48,101 nucleotides of DNA from a virus (lineage: Duplodnaviria > Heunggongvirae > Uroviricota > Caudoviricetes): the IMG/VR virus record IMGVR_UViG_2939521961_000008. One strand, written 5' to 3'. A model generated the notes under the pieces. It was not told the DNA's origin. It searched no databases and worked only from the letters and a program-made list of their open reading frames with translations. Position 1 is the stretch's first letter. Every line of letters starts with the position of its first letter. Below, in pieces: positions 2,794-21,518 of this stretch. The position numbers were made by a program, and so were the translations under genes.

Positions 2794-5386
2794 TTGCATA
2801 TTCCTTAGCCCAGCGGGGCAGTGATAACGTCTTAATAGCTGGCCATTCATCGGTATTGAGGCAGTCAGCCAGGGTTCGCAGATTGCGGTGATATTCCAGC
2901 TGACCTGCCAGTTTTGCTTCTTCGCCCATCATGAAAATTTCAACCGGATAACGTCCGCATTCAATAGTTGTGCTGGCAACCAGAAAAACGAAAGTTGGCT
3001 GCACTCCAAACTGTGCTTCATAACCGTCACTGTAGAATGCATCCTGAACGTGATAGCGGTAGTCGTAATAAGCGGTTTTGAATCGTTGAATATCCGCCGT
3101 AGTTTTCACGTCCATGATCCAGTGAAATTCAGGGATAATTTTGTCCGGACGGCACCGACACAAAATTGCTGTTTCAGGATCTTCCCAGTAAATTGATGAT
3201 TCAGCGTGTCCGGCGCTTTCAACAAGCCATTGCCCCAGCGGCAAAGCCATAACGCTCTGATACATGAGTTCAATTTTCCGGCCTTCTTCGGCAGTGATAA
3301 CCGTTTTTCCTGTGCTTGCGCATTCCCTCAGAAACGCTTTCTCTTCTTCTTTTCCGGAGTTTGTCCGGCGGTTAAATTCAGGTGCTACGATAAAGCGGTT
3401 ACTGAATTCTTCCGGCTCAAGTACCCGGCAGTGGAAAGCGGTTCCTAAATCGAGCGTTTTTGTCTTTGTGGTGTCCACGGGGGCATTTTTACGCCACAAA
3501 TACAGTGCCGGAGTATCAGCAATGTCATCGAGCTGAGACTTACTGACACCGGGACCCGCGTGGTAATTCTCATTCGAAATTCCGTAATAAATACCTGGCT
3601 CTATGTCTTCTACGATTACGGGATCTGCGACTTCGCCAGTTTCATCACTGCAATCGCGATGCGGATCGCTGCCAGCATTCTCATTGTGCGGATGTTCAGC
3701 GCCTTCCATTTCCTCCGGATCATTTTCCTTAGCTTCAACCTGACTCTCTTCATCGAATGTTTCCTGGTATGTTGCGTCGCCCATCACCGCACCACAGTCA
3801 GGGCAGTTATCCCCGCCAGTCTGGCCGCAGGCATTGCAGGCTATTTCCGGTTCCTGTTGCACTATTGGCTCAGGTTGATTCATATCCGGGCTGGTTTTTT
3901 CCGTTTCTGGCTGGTTCTGGTACACACAATCGCGAGTCTGGATCCCCTTTACCCATTTCGGATCGTTCGGGTCGCTAATTCTGTCAACAAATTCACCACG
4001 TGATGCAGCAAGCAATTTATCGGCATCGACAGGATTTTTTGATGGAATGTTTTTCCGGGCTTCATGGAGTTCTGCCCGCAGTTCCTGATATTTCGCATCA
4101 ACAGAATTTACCTGTGACTGAGCATCCAGCGGCTGCGTGTCCTGATGATGTTCAGTTGCGTCCGGTTCCATTGTTTCAGCCTCTCCCTGTTCAACTGCCG
4201 TTGTTCCAGATGGTTGCGGTTTTTCTTCATAATCCTGTTTTCCTTCTTCTGTTACTCGCTGCGGCATCGGGGCAGAGGAGCGACCGCAGGCAATATCCAC
4301 GATTTCCGGATCAGGGTTGGCATGATCGGTTTCAGTCAGTACTTTGTTCAGATATTCAGTGACGTGCGCGGGGATGACCTCGATCCCAATTGGTGCTTCT
4401 TTTACGGACGCAACCACGATGGCGCGGGAATAATCCAGCCCGCCAGGCATGGTGATGAATTTGTCGCGGAAAACAGAAAAGGGCGGTTTATTTTCAGCGA
4501 TAATTTCCTCAATGCGTTTAGCGTGTGCCGGATGAAGGTTATAGATGTCCAGATCCATTGAACGGGCCAGTACGCCAGTGGCTACGTCCCGCGCCAGTGA
4601 CGTCAGATCGTGTACGAAACCTTCGCCGCGATCGGTGAGGTTTCCGCCGCCAGCATTAGCACCGGAAGCCGTGCGAGTGATGTGTGAAACACGATTACCC
4701 TTCATCCACTCTTTTGTCAGCAGTCCTCGATCGGTGTAGTCAGCGTTCAGGTATGCTTCGAAAAAAGCAGTTATCAGTCCCAGGTTTGAATTACCAGGAT
4801 TAGGGAAAACTTTGTCAGTGTCACGAACCAGTTTGTGGAGTTCGCGAATTTCCAGCGGGTCGAGCAGGCTGGTTTTGTGGGAAACAGCCAGGGCAGTAAC
4901 AGCCGGTAGTTCTTCAGCCCGAGCAATGTGTAATGCCTGGAGTCCGTCGCGTGAAACGTGCGTTACCGGTTTTTCGCTGCCGTGTTGAGCAAGCCAACGA
5001 ATGGGCAGTTCCTGGCCAGAAATTGGGAGTAGCATATTCTCCTCAATCTCAGTCATGTCTTCGCCGTTGACGTTGGTATTGCCTTGATAGTGAGCGTTGT
5101 CTGGTGCTGCTCCCGGTTTTAGTTCCCATGTCATGGAGTCTTTGCTGAGTTGATAGCGTTCACTCCAGGTAAAATCGATCTCACCTTCAGCGGGCAGGTC
5201 ATTAACGACAGGAAAATTCGTGGCAACAGCTTTAAAATAGCTGCTCAGTTTTTTACCTGACTTAACGATCAGGTAGTCCAGAGTGGCACAGGTCGATTCA
5301 AAATCGTTGCTTGCCCACAGGACGACGTCAGGTTCACCGGATGATTTTTTCGCTTTCCGTAACAGGAAGAGTGGTTTTGTGCTCAT
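2786..5386 (-). CDS. recE: RecE exonuclease VIII, full-length 866 aa
   Basis: 866-aa [32 protein letters not shown]... with C-terminal nuclease region; 8-bp overlap with recT as in Rac. Confidence 0.95.
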
Positions 5387-16242: not shown

Positions 16243-17292
16243 GTGCGGGTATTACTTCGACCTGTTCTGGTACCGGAACTCGGGCTGGTGATCGTTAAGC
16301 CGGGCCGTGAATCCATGCCGGTATTCCACAATACCCGGGTACTGGTGGAGCCGGAACCGAAAAGCATGCGTAATCTGCCGTCCGGGGTCGTTCCTGCCGT
16401 TCGCCAGCCGCTGGCGGAGGATAAATCACTGCTGCCATTTTTCAGCGATGAGCGGGTGATTCGTGCAGCTGGCGGCGCTGGTGCACTGTCTGACTGGTTA
16501 TTACGTCACGTGAAATCCTGCCAGTGGCCACACGGCGATTATCATCACAGCGAAACCGTTATTCACAGTTACGGTGCTGGCGCAATGGTGTTGTGCTGGC
16601 ACTGCGACAACCAGCTGCGCGACCAGACCTCCGAATCACTTGAGCAACTTACTCAACAAAATCTGACAGCCTGGATGATTGACGTCATACGCCATGTAAT
16701 GAATGGCACGCAGGAGCGGGAATTATCGCTGGCTGAATTATCCTGGTGGGCAGTCTGCAATCAGGTGGTGGACGCATTACCTGAGGCAGTATCGCGTCGC
16801 TCTCTGGGATTACCGGCGGAAAAAATCCGCTCCGTATACCGTGAAAGCGACATCATACCGGGAGAACAGACCGCCACCAGCATACTGAAGCAGCGCACAA
16901 AAAATATTGCGCTACCGCCTCACACCCACCAGCAACAGAACCCACCACAGGAAAAGACGGTGGTCAGCATTGCCGTTGATCCGGAGTCTCCGGAATCCTT
17001 CATGAAACGACCTAAACGTCGCCGCTGGGTAAATGAGAAATACACACGCTGGGTAAAGACACAGCCGTGTGCGTGTTGTGGTAAGCCAGCGGACGATCCT
17101 CATCATCTGATTGGTCATGGTCAGGGTGGAATGGGAACAAAATCCCACGATATTTTCACGCTACCGCTGTGTCGGGAGCATCACAACGAGCTTCATGCGG
17201 ATCCGCTGGCGTTCGAAGAAAAGCATGGTTCCCAGGTTGATTTAATTTTTCGTTTTCTTGATCACGCCTTTGCAACCGGCGTGCTCGGGTAA
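16243..17292 (+). CDS. ydfU: DUF968-family protein (YdfU-like) with C-terminal Cys/His motif
   Basis: 349 aa; GTG start after GGAGG; C-terminal CACCGKPADDPHHLIGHGQGGMGTKSHDIFTLPLCREHHNELH. Confidence 0.7.
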   Translation: MRVLLRPVLVPELGLVIVKPGRESMPVFHNTRVLVEPEPKSMRNLPSGVVPAVRQPLAEDKSLLPFFSDERVIRAAGGAGALSDWLLRHVKSCQWPHGDYHHSETVIHSYGAGAMVLCWHCDNQLRDQTSESLEQLTQQNLTAWMIDVIRHVMNGTQERELSLAELSWWAVCNQVVDALPEAVSRRSLGLPAEKIRSVYRESDIIPGEQTATSILKQRTKNIALPPHTHQQQNPPQEKTVVSIAVDPESPESFMKRPKRRRWVNEKYTRWVKTQPCACCGKPADDPHHLIGHGQGGMGTKSHDIFTLPLCREHHNELHADPLAFEEKHGSQVDLIFRFLDHAFATGVLG

Positions 17293-17304
17293 AAGAGGTT
17301 ACTG

Positions 17305-17679
17305 ATGCGTATAGAGTTTGTTTTGCTTTACCCGCCGACGGTGAACACCTACTGGCGACGTCGTGGCAGCACATATTTTGTATCAAAAGCCGGTGAGCGT
17401 TATCGCCGGGCTGTGGCGCTTATTGTTCGCCAGCAGCGGCTGAAATTAAGCCTGTCCGGAAGGCTGGCGATAAAGATTATTGCCGAGCCACCGGATAAGC
17501 GCCGCCGTGACCTGGACAATATTCTGAAAGCGCCGCTGGATGCGCTGACGCATGCGGGAGTGTTAATGGACGATGAGCAGTTTGATGAAATCAATATCGT
17601 TCGTGGTCAGCCAGTATCTGGTGGACGTCTGGGGGTGAAGATTTACCCCATAATGCTTGAAGGGCTGGTCAAAAAATGA
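17305..17679 (+). CDS. rusA: RusA-type Holliday junction resolvase
   Basis: 124 aa; conserved RRRDLDN acidic catalytic motif and overall RusA length. Confidence 0.85.
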   Translation: MRIEFVLLYPPTVNTYWRRRGSTYFVSKAGERYRRAVALIVRQQRLKLSLSGRLAIKIIAEPPDKRRRDLDNILKAPLDALTHAGVLMDDEQFDEINIVRGQPVSGGRLGVKIYPIMLEGLVKK

Positions 17680-18497
17680 AACTGGAAGATTTACCGAAAT
17701 ACTACTCCCCAAAATCCCCCGGCCTGACTGATGCATCGGCCTCAACGTCGAAAGATACGCTGAGTATCACTGATGTGATGGCCGCGCAGGGCATGACACA
17801 GAATTGGGCTGAGATGGGGTTTTCTGCGTTCCTTGGGAAAATGGGCATTAGTATGAATGACAGAGAGCGGGCAACAGAATTGCTGACAGAATATGCACTC
17901 AGTCGGTGTGATCGCGTGGCGGCGTTAAGAAAACTCCCGGCAGAAATAAAACCGGCAGTGATGCGTATTATGGCTTCGTATGCGTTTGAAGATTATGCCC
18001 GTAGCGCGGCGAGCAAAAAACAGTGCCCCTGTTGTCACGGAAAAAAATTTATTGAAAGCGAGGTTTTTACAAACAAGATCCAGTATCCGGATGGTAAGCC
18101 GCCAGTGTGGGCAAAGTGCACAAAAGGCGTGTATCCGTCTTACTGGGAGGAATGGAAAAAAGTCAGGGAGGTGGTAAAAGTTGCCTGTCCGGAGTGTGGA
18201 GGGAAGGGGGAGGTTTCCACCGCCTGTAAAGATTGTCGTGGGCGCGGTGTTGCCATTCATCGTGAAGAGTCGGTAAAACGTGGTATGCCTGTTATCAGAG
18301 ACTGCCAGCGTTGTGGTGGTCGTGGCTATGAAAGATTACCTTCAACGGAGGCATTTAATGCCATATGTAATGTAACCGATGCCATATCTCTTGATACATG
18401 GAAAAAAACAGTTAAACGTTTTTACGATACGCTGGTGGTGCAGTTTGATATTGAAGAAGCATGGGCAGAACAACAACTGAAAAAGGTGACCAGATAG
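17676..18497 (+). CDS. Q: late-gene antiterminator Q-like protein (Cys-rich zinc-binding type)
   Basis: 273 aa, multiple CxxC pairs (CPCCHGKK, CPECGGKG, CKDCRGRG, CQRCGGRG); immediately upstream of a promoter-plus-terminator arrangement. Confidence 0.65.
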   Translation: MKLEDLPKYYSPKSPGLTDASASTSKDTLSITDVMAAQGMTQNWAEMGFSAFLGKMGISMNDRERATELLTEYALSRCDRVAALRKLPAEIKPAVMRIMASYAFEDYARSAASKKQCPCCHGKKFIESEVFTNKIQYPDGKPPVWAKCTKGVYPSYWEEWKKVREVVKVACPECGGKGEVSTACKDCRGRGVAIHREESVKRGMPVIRDCQRCGGRGYERLPSTEAFNAICNVTDAISLDTWKKTVKRFYDTLVVQFDIEEAWAEQQLKKVTR

Positions 18498-18512
18498 CTT
18501 TGTTGATTTTTC

Positions 18513-18541
18513 CCGAATCTGTGGTAAATTTGCCCTAACGA
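18513..18541 (+). promoter_or_regulatory. candidate Q-dependent late promoter (PR'-like): TTGATT-N16-TAAATT
   Basis: Hexamers 16 bp apart directly downstream of the Q stop codon. Confidence 0.4.
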
Positions 18542-18578
18542 TGGGCGTTTTATGCCTGACGTTAGAAGATTTTTTACA

Positions 18579-18601
18579 CCCGTCGCCAGGCGGGTTTTTT
18601 T
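18579..18601 (+). terminator. rho-independent terminator (tR'-like) downstream of the late promoter
   Basis: CCCGTC-GCCA-GGCGGG hairpin followed by seven T. Confidence 0.6.
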
Positions 18602-18704
18602 ATGACTGAAATCACGCCAGTACAGTAAACGCGCTGGTGGTTGTGAATACCGGTCTTTCAGCTTGCTGGCTTTTTCGACAAGAGTTATTGGTGTGTCACG
18701 TTAA

Positions 18705-19097
18705 CCGGAAAAAGGAAAGTTTGAGAAACGCGATCTGGCACAGGCGGTTATTAATGCTGCCTACCTGGTGGCCTGTGCAGATGGTGAATGTGAGGCTTCC
18801 TAGAAAGCGAAGATCGAACAGGTACTGCGTAATCAGCCTGCGCTGTCCGCGTTTACGTCAGAAATTAATGCGATTAGCGCAACCATTATCGGTCAGCTGG
18901 ATACGAACTTTAAAATTGGTCGTCGTGCGGCGTTACGTGAGATCGAGGATGTGAAACACGATACGCGTGAAGCGGAAGATGTGCTGGATGTGGCGGTGGC
19001 CATTGCGGAGGCAGACGGCGAAATTGAGCCGGAAGAGCGCAAGGTGCTGGAAGAGATTGCCGGTGTTCTGGGTCTTCGTCTGGAGAATCACCAGTGA
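18705..19097 (+). pseudogene. TerB-like domain remnant: no start codon, in-frame amber at 18801-18803
   Basis: Frame translates ...AYLVACADGECEAS*KAKIEQVLRNQPALSAF...DVLDVAVAIAEADGEIEPEERKVLEEIAGVLGLRLENHQ, resembling the two ADG-x-E repeats of TerB/DjlA-N domains. Confidence 0.5.
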
Positions 19098-19261
19098 CGG
19101 TAAAACTGCGCCTGGCTGTGGCTGCACTCCTGCTGTTTCTGGTGGTGATGGTGGATTTCACCAGCAGAATCATGTCGGTGCTGGCGGATGGGGTGCTGGT
19201 CTGCGGCATTGTGGTATTGCTGTGGCCGGTGATAAAAAGAAACAGCCTGCATAATGCTTGA
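19094..19261 (+). CDS. candidate small membrane protein, 55 aa, two predicted TM helices
   Basis: GTG overlapping the TerB-like TGA (GTGA); MTVKLRLAVAALLLFLVVMVDFTSRIMSVLADGVLVCGIVVLLWPVIKRNSLHNA; not in the ORF track (under 60 aa). Confidence 0.35.
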   Translation: MTVKLRLAVAALLLFLVVMVDFTSRIMSVLADGVLVCGIVVLLWPVIKRNSLHNA

Positions 19262-19428
19262 TTTTTTTGTTTACTGTTTATTAAAAATACTACTGCATGG
19301 TGAATCCCCCTGTGCGGAGGGGCAATCAGCAACCAGGTATATGTGATAATCGCGGATTCAGGTGCTGATACTGAATTCACCGGGAGGCACCCGGCACCAT
19401 GCAAGAAAAAGAATGTGCATGCAAACAT

Positions 19429-19452
19429 GCCCCTCTCCGGAGGGGCTTTTTT
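19429..19452 (+). terminator. rho-independent terminator-like hairpin
   Basis: GCCCCTC-TCCG-GAGGGGC followed by TTTTTT. Confidence 0.5.
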
Positions 19453-19667
19453 ATGGGTAAAAAATGCCCGAATGGGTTCGGGCAATAGCATGAGATACTG
19501 ATATTGTTGTGTTGTTATCGTGTGGATTTTAACCAGGGTTTATCAGGCTGCGCAACTGCGTGGCCTTTTTTCATTTCTTGGGCTGTAGTCCCCGTGTGTC
19601 ATTCAGGCTTCCGGACTACAGCCCACTCCATATCTGATTTAATACACTATCCCGGCCGGGAGGAATA

Positions 19668-21518
19668 ATGACATTTAAACATTATGATGTTGTCAGGGCG
19701 GCGTCGCCGTCAGACCTTGCGGAAAAGCTGACACACAAACTGAAAGAGGGCTGGCAGCCGTTTGGGAGTCCGGTGGCCATAACCCCTTATACCCTGATGC
19801 AGGCGATTACAGCAGAAGGTGATGTGGTGGTCAGTGGTGCAACTGAGCCGGAGTGGTACTACGTCATCGTACTGGCCGGGCAGTCCAATGCCATGGCTTA
19901 CGGTGAAGGGCTTCCGCTGCCGGATTCATACGATGCTCCGGATCCGCGCATTAAACAGCTGGCGCGCCGCAGTACAGTGACGCCGGGTGGGGCTGCCTGC
20001 AGATATAACGATATTATTCCGGCCGACCACTGCCTGCATGATGTGCAGGATATGAGTACGCTGAATCATCCGAAGGCAGACCTGAGCAAAGGGCAGTACG
20101 GCTGTGTCGGCCAGGGGTTACATATTGCCAAAAAACTGCTCCCGTATATCCCGAATAACGCGGGGATCCTGCTGGTACCATGCTGTCGTGGTGGTTCGGC
20201 ATTCACCCAGGGCGCGGAGGGGACATTCAGTGCGGACACGGGGGCCAGCCAGGATTCGGCACGCTGGGGTGTGGGTAAACCGTTATATCAGGACCTGATT
20301 GCGCGCACTAAAGCTGCATTACAGAAGAACCCGAAAAATGTGTTGCTGGCGGTGTGCTGGATGCAGGGAGAGTTTGACATGAGCGCCGCCACCCACGCAC
20401 AGCAACCTGCGCTGTTTACAGCCATGCTGACACAGTTTCGTGCTGACCTCTCCGTGTTTAACGCGCAGTGCCATGGTGGCAGTGCTGCAGATGTGCCGTG
20501 GATTTGTGGTGACACGACGTATTACTGGAAAAATACATACGCTACCCAGTACGACACCGTGTACGGCGGGTATAAAAACAGGGAGAGTGAGGGCGTTTAT
20601 TTTGTGCCCTTCATGACAGACGGTAACGGTGTCAATACCGCCACTAACGCGCCGGCAGAAGATCCGGATATTCCGGCATCAGGATATTACGGTGCGGCAT
20701 CGAGAACGAATGGAAACCAGGTATCATCAAACCGCCCGACACATTTCAGTTCATGGGCGCGCAGGAGCATTATTCCGGATCGTCTGGCAACCGCTATTCT
20801 GAACGCAGCCGGGCGCACCTCCGCCTTCATCAGTGGTAAGGCACCGGAAATCAAACCCTCGCCCGGCGGCAACACGCCATCGGGTCCGTCTGCAGATACG
20901 TCCGTTCGCACAATCTCCCTGCTGCCGGCAGCCGGAGAGGCTGCTGCGCAGGGCTGGAGCATTAAGGATGGCGGAATTCAGTTGTCAGATGGTGTATTTA
21001 AGATCACCAAGCAGAGCAATAAAACCTGGTCCCTGACGCATCCGGTGGATGACGCAATTACCCTGCTGACACAGGGCGGCAGACTGACCTGTAAGTTCCG
21101 CCTGTCAGGCGCACTGACCAACAATCAGTTCGGGCTGGGGATTTATCTGTATACGGATGCTCCCGTTCCTGATGGTGTGGCGATGACGGGTACCGGTAAT
21201 CCGTTCCTGATGTCGTACTTCACTCAGACCACTGACGGCAGAGTGAATCTGATGCATCACAGGAAAGCCGGAAACACGAAGCTGGGGGAGTTCGGCGATT
21301 ACGGTAACGACTGGCAGACGCTGGAGCTGGTGTTCACCGCCGGCAGTGCCACGGTTACTCCGAAACTGAATGGAGTGGCTGGCCCGGCATTCCAGGTTAT
21401 AAAAGACAGTCTGACACTGGGACTGAATGCGCTGACGCTGACGGATGTTACAAAAAATGCAGCGTATGGCGTTGAGATAGAAAGTCTGATGCTGGAGATA
21501 AATGCACCGGCAGCATAA
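19668..21518 (+). CDS. nanS: prophage sialate O-acetylesterase (NanS-p / YjhS-like), 616 aa
   Basis: RBS GGGAGG; N-terminal small domain followed by an SGNH-hydrolase-type GQSNA motif (VLAGQSNAMAYGEG); size and position between Q and lysis genes as in Stx-type phages. Confidence 0.75.
   Translation: MTFKHYDVVRAASPSDLAEKLTHKLKEGWQPFGSPVAITPYTLMQAITAEGDVVVSGATEPEWYYVIVLAGQSNAMAYGEGLPLPDSYDAPDPRIKQLARRSTVTPGGAACRYNDIIPADHCLHDVQDMSTLNHPKADLSKGQYGCVGQGLHIAKKLLPYIPNNAGILLVPCCRGGSAFTQGAEGTFSADTGASQDSARWGVGKPLYQDLIARTKAALQKNPKNVLLAVCWMQGEFDMSAATHAQQPALFTAMLTQFRADLSVFNAQCHGGSAADVPWICGDTTYYWKNTYATQYDTVYGGYKNRESEGVYFVPFMTDGNGVNTATNAPAEDPDIPASGYYGAASRTNGNQVSSNRPTHFSSWARRSIIPDRLATAILNAAGRTSAFISGKAPEIKPSPGGNTPSGPSADTSVRTISLLPAAGEAAAQGWSIKDGGIQLSDGVFKITKQSNKTWSLTHPVDDAITLLTQGGRLTCKFRLSGALTNNQFGLGIYLYTDAPVPDGVAMTGTGNPFLMSYFTQTTDGRVNLMHHRKAGNTKLGEFGDYGNDWQTLELVFTAGSATVTPKLNGVAGPAFQVIKDSLTLGLNALTLTDVTKNAAYGVEIESLMLEINAPAA

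Follow-up and report, generated by a model that had tools for sequence, protein, structure and literature searches.

Gene content downstream of the Q antiterminator

The window analyzed here is the whole 48,101-nucleotide stretch of the Caudoviricetes record IMGVR_UViG_2939521961_000008. The locus lies downstream of the gene for the antiterminator Q (17676 to 18497, plus strand, 273 amino acids), which was recognized by matches to PF03589 Antiterm (E = 4.7e-50) and PF00684 (E = 4e-7) and is annotated as "antitermination protein" in identical genomes. This Q carries a DnaJ-type CxxCxGxG zinc-finger region along with the PF03589 domain, and the same downstream module goes with unrelated Q types of 113, 131, and 229 amino acids in other prophages. 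Next comes a putative late promoter pR' (18503 to 18530, plus strand; TTGATT, a 16-nt spacer, and TGgTAAATT with an extended -10), which was picked out only by eye; a consensus promoter scan did not flag it (8 of 12 positions, against a threshold of 9 of 12), and the segment is approximately 94% conserved downstream of the same Q type in many prophages. A terminator scan placed a tR'-like intrinsic terminator at 18578 to 18602 (plus strand), with a 7-bp stem containing five G-C pairs followed by a run of seven T residues. The leader between both signals (approximately 18537 to 18602) is predicted to give a transcript of approximately 65 nt that would be the analog of the StxS sRNA in Stx2 phages, and an Rfam match to mmgR/suhB over this leader was dismissed as insignificant (E = 0.58).

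After the terminator comes a second leader (18603 to 18716, plus strand), homologous to L005:2612-2726 and L003:830-951 (L numbers denote the comparison loci), which in other prophages leads to a 65-aa ORF and is cut here just before the ATG of that ORF. It runs into the remnant of a TerB-family gene, tciA (18717 to 19097, plus strand), whose stop codon overlaps the start of an intact gene for a small membrane protein, tciB (19094 to 19261, plus strand); the names tciA and tciB rest on homology only. The gene for the sRNA STnc100 (19269 to 19458, plus strand; Rfam RF02076, 147.8 bits, E = 5e-34), including its terminator (19429 to 19446 plus a T-run), begins 8 nt past the tciB stop, and AgvB (anti-GcvB; 19459 to 19520, minus strand; Rfam RF02702, 96.5 bits, E = 1e-18) follows, so that both sRNA genes stand back to back directly 3' of tciB. 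In the window and in each of the five other E. coli lambdoid loci tested, STnc100 begins 5 to 66 nt past the end of tciB, and it was not found in P1 or in tciAB loci outside E. coli; STnc100 may be an sRNA linked to the 3' UTR of the tciAB cassette. A minus-strand ORF of 193 amino acids (18910 to 19491), antisense to tciA, tciB, and STnc100, was taken as spurious from its position alone.

The region ends at a gene for a NanS-p/YjhS-type sialate O-acetylesterase (19668 to 21518, plus strand; DUF1737, SASA, and DUF6645 domains), homologous to the yjhS gene of Stx1a phages. This esterase gene is the conserved right border of a slot that holds either stx or tciAB: in a Stx1a phage, the interval between Q and nanS-p/yjhS is filled by stx1AB, and homology to Stx1a phages resumes at position 19373 of the window. 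As stx1AB lies just upstream of this shared sequence, the tciAB cassette occupies the slot equivalent to that of stx, which agrees with the first-pass annotation, where the locus had been located just past the late promoter and terminator, at the position of stx. Like the stx slot of the Stx phages, it comes after Q, pR', and tR' (and after methyltransferase and tRNA genes where these are present) and before nanS-p/yjhS and the lysis genes. Unlike it, the window carries tciAB and no toxin as cargo, and the deletion that took the 5' end of tciA also removed the tRNA and methyltransferase genes.

The tciA remnant

The frame containing the remnant (18705 to 19097, plus strand) is closed off upstream by a TAA (18702 to 18704) and interrupted by an in-frame TAG (18801 to 18803). 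Between both stops there is a single potential initiator among ATG, GTG, and TTG, the GTG at 18768, which lies 11 codons before the TAG and corresponds to codon 39 of the intact TciA protein. With the TAG read as glutamate, the translation matches the Pfam TerB profile PF05099 with 55.7 bits (cutoff, 24.4) and E = 7.6e-15 over profile positions 2 to 109 of 118; this was the search, with the amber codon read through, that the first-pass annotation had suggested for its TerB-like frame. The homology to TerB, delimited by tblastn, begins at 18717 and comprises codons 18 to 143 plus the stop, with 97.6% identity to the intact protein. The sequence from 18603 to 18716 is unrelated to TerB, so that the feature first delimited as 18602 to 19261 was correct on its right side but included at its left edge approximately 115 nt that do not derive from the TerB gene.

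TerB-family proteins of this type have two acidic repeats, described as ADGxxxxxE motifs from an alignment with no or almost no variation at D39, G40, E46, D117, G118, and E124. In the remnant, the second repeat (ADGEIEPEE) is intact. In the first one (ADGECEAS-E), the glutamate of the DGxxxxxE motif is replaced by the TAG at 18801, and alignment with the intact 143-aa homologs shows a GAG at this position; Glu46 is invariant across 12 of 12 diverse homologs, including TciA of P1. The earlier reading of the TAG as a change at a conserved glutamate was therefore right, as were the lack of a start codon and the upstream stop that it reported. The frame is not a complete ORF, as it has no start codon, lacks codons 1 to 17, contains an internal amber codon, and is annotated as a pseudogene by PGAP. 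We conclude that the copy in the window is a pseudogene derived from the TerB family and not a functional member of it.

This status, the families involved, and the cassette itself are already known from public annotation. In the RefSeq genome E2865, which is 100% identical here, PGAP describes a [quoted passage not shown] (18735 to 19097, with the note "internal stop") followed by a "DUF3927 family protein." Within the remnant, the ORF list also contains a residual GTG-initiated ORF of 48 amino acids (18951 to 19097, plus strand), which represents the C-terminal third of TciA and matches phrog_3920, a family of 48-aa proteins of unknown function. A GAGG lies just 2 nt before its GTG, and this ORF is probably a product of gene callers rather than a gene.

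The partner gene tciB

The gene downstream of the remnant is intact and codes for a 55-aa protein of the DUF3927 family (PF13064, 62.3 bits, E = 4e-17; phrog_1470, "TciB-like," E = 4e-30). This match and that of the remnant to TerB are much too strong to be due to chance. The TGA that ends the remnant (19095 to 19097) overlaps the GTG start of tciB (19094 to 19096) in a GTGA arrangement. The protein has two hydrophobic segments (approximately residues 7 to 20 and 31 to 45; GRAVY, 1.43) separated by a polar DFTSRIMSVLADG segment, so both the coupling and the two-transmembrane character that had been proposed from the letters alone were confirmed. In the TciB family, residues R6, D21, F22, S28, and D32 vary hardly or not at all. 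The window TciB is the same protein as that found beside an intact tciA in EC4115 (WP_000216636.1), that is, tciB is unchanged at the protein level.

The pairing is well conserved. Among 25 loci with TciA-type genes, 21 have a hydrophobic ORF of 49 to 57 amino acids (79 in one case) immediately downstream, with a start that overlaps or abuts the tciA stop (GTGA, TGATG, TAATG, or ATGA), and 11 of the 13 partner ORFs tested pass as DUF3927. These 21 loci span Escherichia, Franconibacter, Pantoea, Buttiauxella, Serratia, Pectobacterium, Oceanisphaera, a Bilophila-labelled MAG, and P1. The first-pass annotation had staked its reading on TerB similarity and on the conservation of the downstream ORF beside intact homologs, and both are borne out. 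The exceptions are one Pseudomonas locus and one Paracoccus locus, where the small partner is of another kind, and two loci of Marinomonas without one. In Pseudomonas juntendi (L023, approximately 4440 to 4645) and Paracoccus (L028, approximately 4400 to 4610), a distant TerB/TciA homolog is followed with a stop-start overlap by a 67- to 68-aa protein that has a conserved C..YGY...VGC.VKT pattern and a single hydrophobic segment, at its N terminus; this protein may be an alternative small partner.

The stop-start coupling conserved in the family appears to be lost in the window. As tciB has its own GGAG (19082 to 19085), 8 nt 5' of its GTG, it may still be translated despite this loss, and it would be transcribed as part of the Q-antiterminated late transcript.

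Origin of the two lesions

Intact alleles of tciA code for 143 residues, beginning with MFGIFKKKTRRAATEIKKFEKRDL. In other prophages the genes after tR' are, in order, the 65-aa ORF, a DNA methyltransferase gene, the tRNA-Ile and tRNA-Arg genes, and then tciA. The window has lost the 65-aa ORF, the methyltransferase gene, both tRNA genes, and tciA codons 1 to 17, a stretch of approximately 1,553 bp when compared with EC4115 and of approximately 2.6 kb when compared with phage PPyecE_EH1910. The lost codons include the invariant G3 and K7 and the nearly invariant K17. The junction (18713 to 18719) falls in an A-rich microhomology, and since AAAAAG is present in both parental sequences at the breakpoints, it is a microhomology-associated deletion, which joined the leader of the 65-aa ORF, just past tR', to codon 17/18 of tciA. 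The second lesion is a G-to-T change that turned the codon of the invariant Glu46 from GAG to TAG (18801 to 18803).

Both lesions occur separately elsewhere. The identical junction is found in L032, L033, and L035, and in the first two it goes with GAG instead of TAG; the amber codon is found with a complete tciA 5' end in L034, L040, L088, and L114. As each lesion exists alone in other prophages, they are independent events that have since been combined by recombination. The amber allele is confined to one haplotype type (VACADG), and it is also found along with other inactivating lesions. Further tciA alleles include frameshifts in the A-run near codon 17 and other truncations. All this fits the "decaying accessory module" of the first-pass annotation: the 5' end is deleted, an invariant glutamate carries a nonsense mutation, the lesions are found apart in other prophages, and PGAP annotates a pseudogene.

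Relatives of the cassette

The intact TciA protein matches phrog_632 ("tellurite resistance") over its whole length (residues 1 to 143 of 143, E = 1e-68), and a profile made from 12 homologs matches the solved TerB structure 2JXU over residues 13 to 137 (E = 2e-13), including the paired ADGxxxxxE motifs. A tblastn search of phage genomes gave full-length relatives in P1, P7, D6, Erwinia jumbo phages, Klebsiella, Vibrio, and Pseudomonas phages, and others. TciA of P1 is 40.6% identical over all 143 residues (100% coverage), and the GenBank record of P1 contains tciA, tciB (with a one-base overlap), and tciC in this order, all three annotated "by homology."

The P1 pair resembles the lambdoid one in coding for a TerB-family protein of 141 to 143 amino acids followed, with a stop-start overlap, by a DUF3927 membrane protein of 54 to 55 amino acids, and in being accessory and nonessential, with tRNA genes nearby. 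The two differ in that the lambdoid cassette lies in the late operon of a prophage, that the window tciA is a pseudogene, and that in E. coli lambdoid prophages the pair is followed by STnc100. The window thus has a TciA homolog and an adjacent, overlapping TciB, and we found no counterpart of tciC: P1 TciC is a 35-aa protein (MGFWDFADKHP...), and the 30-aa ORF at 19254 to 19346 is unrelated to it and absent from the allelic variants L004 and L009.

TerB of the terZABCDE tellurite-resistance operon (2JXU, Klebsiella pneumoniae) belongs to the same Pfam family, PF05099; however, no other ter gene lies beside tciAB, and the partner of that TerB is the multipass TerC, while that of TciA is a 55-aa hairpin protein. 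The N-terminal TerB-like domain of DjlA, a membrane-anchored cochaperone, is weakly similar to the second TerB repeat (NCBIfam PRK09430, 28 bits, E = 1.4e-6) and is also paired with a membrane anchor, but the score is far under the 162-bit family cutoff, there is no J domain here, and the anchor is a separate protein. DjlA and YmfL were the only NCBIfam matches, both below threshold. Among the PADLOC defense models, TciA gave only 13.9 bits (E = 0.005) to PDC-S48 and TciB gave no match; the former is not meaningful, and we do not claim a known defense system.

Taking these comparisons together with the state of the frame, we consider it very likely that the locus consists of a nonfunctional tciA remnant and an intact tciB, the lambdoid version of the P1 tciA-tciB pair and a common "moron" cassette of the stx slot. 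The first-pass annotation did not recognize a TerB domain with a small membrane partner as classic lambdoid cargo, a view that does not hold: the pair has a homolog in P1, is present in 840 of 5,426 complete E. coli genomes, and has a published annotation in a lambdoid phage, as the non-Stx phage PPyecE_EH1910 carries an intact pair with the label "TciA/TerB-like protein."

Frequency of the cassette and its alleles

The 840 genomes with the tciAB module represent approximately 15% of the complete E. coli set, with a median of 6 places per genome and roughly 3,900 copies in total. Sequence spanning the deletion junction was found in 484 genomes of this set, and an exact 57-mer centered on the amber T in 529 E. 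coli genome records (approximately 10% of complete genomes). Intact GAG alleles coexist with the amber allele in the same species. The IMG/VR loci were the best 80 matches, a choice biased to intact genes, and were kept out of the allele frequencies. These frequencies are the pattern expected of redundant paralogous cargo that decays and is shuffled among co-resident prophages.

Alternative explanations for the disrupted frame

The alternative that survives best, although we consider it unlikely, is that the loss of tciA was selected rather than neutral, with TciA being costly or redundant in strains with many lambdoid prophages and tciB and the adjacent sRNAs being kept. It would account for the several independent tciA lesions (5' deletion, E46*, and A-run frameshifts), for an amber allele reaching approximately 10% of complete genomes, and for a TciB protein that is identical beside intact and dead tciA. 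An adaptive version of it, which we regard as equally doubtful, would have the E46 amber arise once and spread by recombination among co-resident lambdoid prophages of EHEC/STEC owing to the cost of TciA, with tciB and STnc100 kept as a TciA-free unit. However, tciB also shows recurrent nonsense or partial alleles (W44* or partial, in L035, L068, L088, L114, and L007), the median of 6 copies in carrier genomes means redundancy, which under relaxed selection explains the decay, and the set of 80 IMG/VR loci, chosen as best matches, is skewed to intact genes.

It is quite improbable that a truncated product is still functional, such as in partnering TciB or in coupling its translation, either as the 48-aa ORF or as the 120-aa form with a CTG start that is possible where the TAG is absent. 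The 48-aa ORF is open and has been called in phage genomes often enough to form PHROG 3920, the 120-aa form is accepted by PGAP as a protein, and ribosomes ending at 19097 would restore the coupling to tciB. The 48-aa piece, however, is only the last third of the TerB domain and its GAGG is poorly spaced from the GTG, while no Shine-Dalgarno sequence is suitably spaced from the CTG at 18735. A family such as phrog_3920 is in any case what gene callers are expected to produce from a pseudogene and does not count as independent evidence. The allele with the 5' deletion but no amber codon, which PGAP calls as a 120-aa protein (P0044; L032:3001-3363 and L033:1281-1643, equivalent to 18735 to 19097 of the window), is probably an over-called pseudogene, although it may be expressed.

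Even less probable, to the point of being very hard to sustain, is that the TAG is read through, by a suppressor tRNA or by programmed read-through, to give a functional TerB-domain protein. No other in-frame stop interrupts the 125 retained codons, the remaining sequence is nearly identical to the intact protein, and the allele is frequent (the 529 records mentioned above). Nevertheless, such identity is expected of a young pseudogene that recombines with intact paralogs, and the coexistence of GAG alleles in the species and the W44* alleles of tciB are both typical of drift. ARAGORN found no tRNA gene in the whole window, so no suppressor is encoded there, and an Rfam search of positions 17000 to 21000 revealed neither riboswitches nor recoding elements within the TerB region. 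Furthermore, the frame is closed by the stop at 18702, the GTG at codon 39 is the sole initiator 5' of the TAG, and the first 17 codons are gone with their conserved residues; with no initiation codon and the conserved N terminus missing, read-through would not rescue the frame. A gene dependent on suppression or recoding was rejected on these grounds (no tRNA in the window, GAG in the homologs, no start, and a lost N terminus), and with it the "suppressor-dependent or unconventional gene pair" first offered as the other option, which is also at odds with how common intact alleles are. As the window provides neither a start codon nor a suppressor tRNA, no TciA is likely to be made from the remnant, a pseudogene in ordinary decay. 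An error of sequencing or assembly can be dismissed almost entirely, as independent complete genomes contain the identical 821-nt sequence and the 529 records the amber 57-mer.

Predicted role of the intact cassette

Our search of the literature on DUF3927, tciA/tciB, and TerB in prophages or in relation to Shiga toxin found no functional study of the cassette. Even for P1, the phenotype attached to these genes was assigned by homology, and the one functional datum that came up is that tciABC of P1 is not needed for plaque formation (PMC10695390); it has been lost from about half of the subgroup-1 P1-like phage-plasmids (PMC9603915). In the intact lambdoid arrangement there is a terminator after the tRNA genes, and the promoter scan found no consensus promoter before tciA, so most expression would be expected to come, as with stx, from late transcription antiterminated by Q, and the products would appear after prophage induction. 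TciA would be a soluble, acidic protein with the TerB fold and TciB a membrane hairpin. An interaction between TerB and TerC has been reported (PMC11003894, citing Turkovicova 2016), and by analogy with it TciB would recruit TciA to the inner membrane, where TciA probably works with TciB as its membrane partner. Candidate physiological roles are protection from envelope or oxidative stress, exclusion of colicins or phages, and control of cell division.

The value of the locus as a discovery is small, and its practical value is modest. Gene callers should treat neither the 48-aa residual ORF nor the 120-aa CTG-start ORF as a real gene, and the two lesions can be used as markers of recombination among the paralogous prophages of EHEC genomes. 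As the tciAB cassette is found in the stx slot of approximately 15% of complete E. coli genomes, the intact cassette, and not the remnant, is a reasonable target for functional work.

Other alleles of tciA and tciB

Several comparison loci carry further variants of the pair. L031 (approximately 2985 to 3000) has an independent lesion, a 1-nt deletion in the A-run around codons 17 and 18 (AAAAAG to AAAAG), which is the same A-run that provided the microhomology for the deletion in the window. L034:2397-2825 (P0053 and P0099, where P numbers denote proteins) has a variant tciA 5' end whose ATG is not in frame, so that the called gene begins at a TTG 4 nt further on; the variant N terminus reads MVFLVKKARR compared with MFGIFGKKARR, and it belongs to a protein cluster of 847 member sequences. 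The tciB W44* allele (L035:2822-2953, L068, L088, and L114) codes for a 43-aa product that PGAP still names a DUF3927 family protein. Finally, P0006 (197 amino acids) and P0066 (170 amino acids) are natural TerB-DUF3927 fusions of E. coli that arose by loss of the tciA stop or by a frameshift near the overlap.
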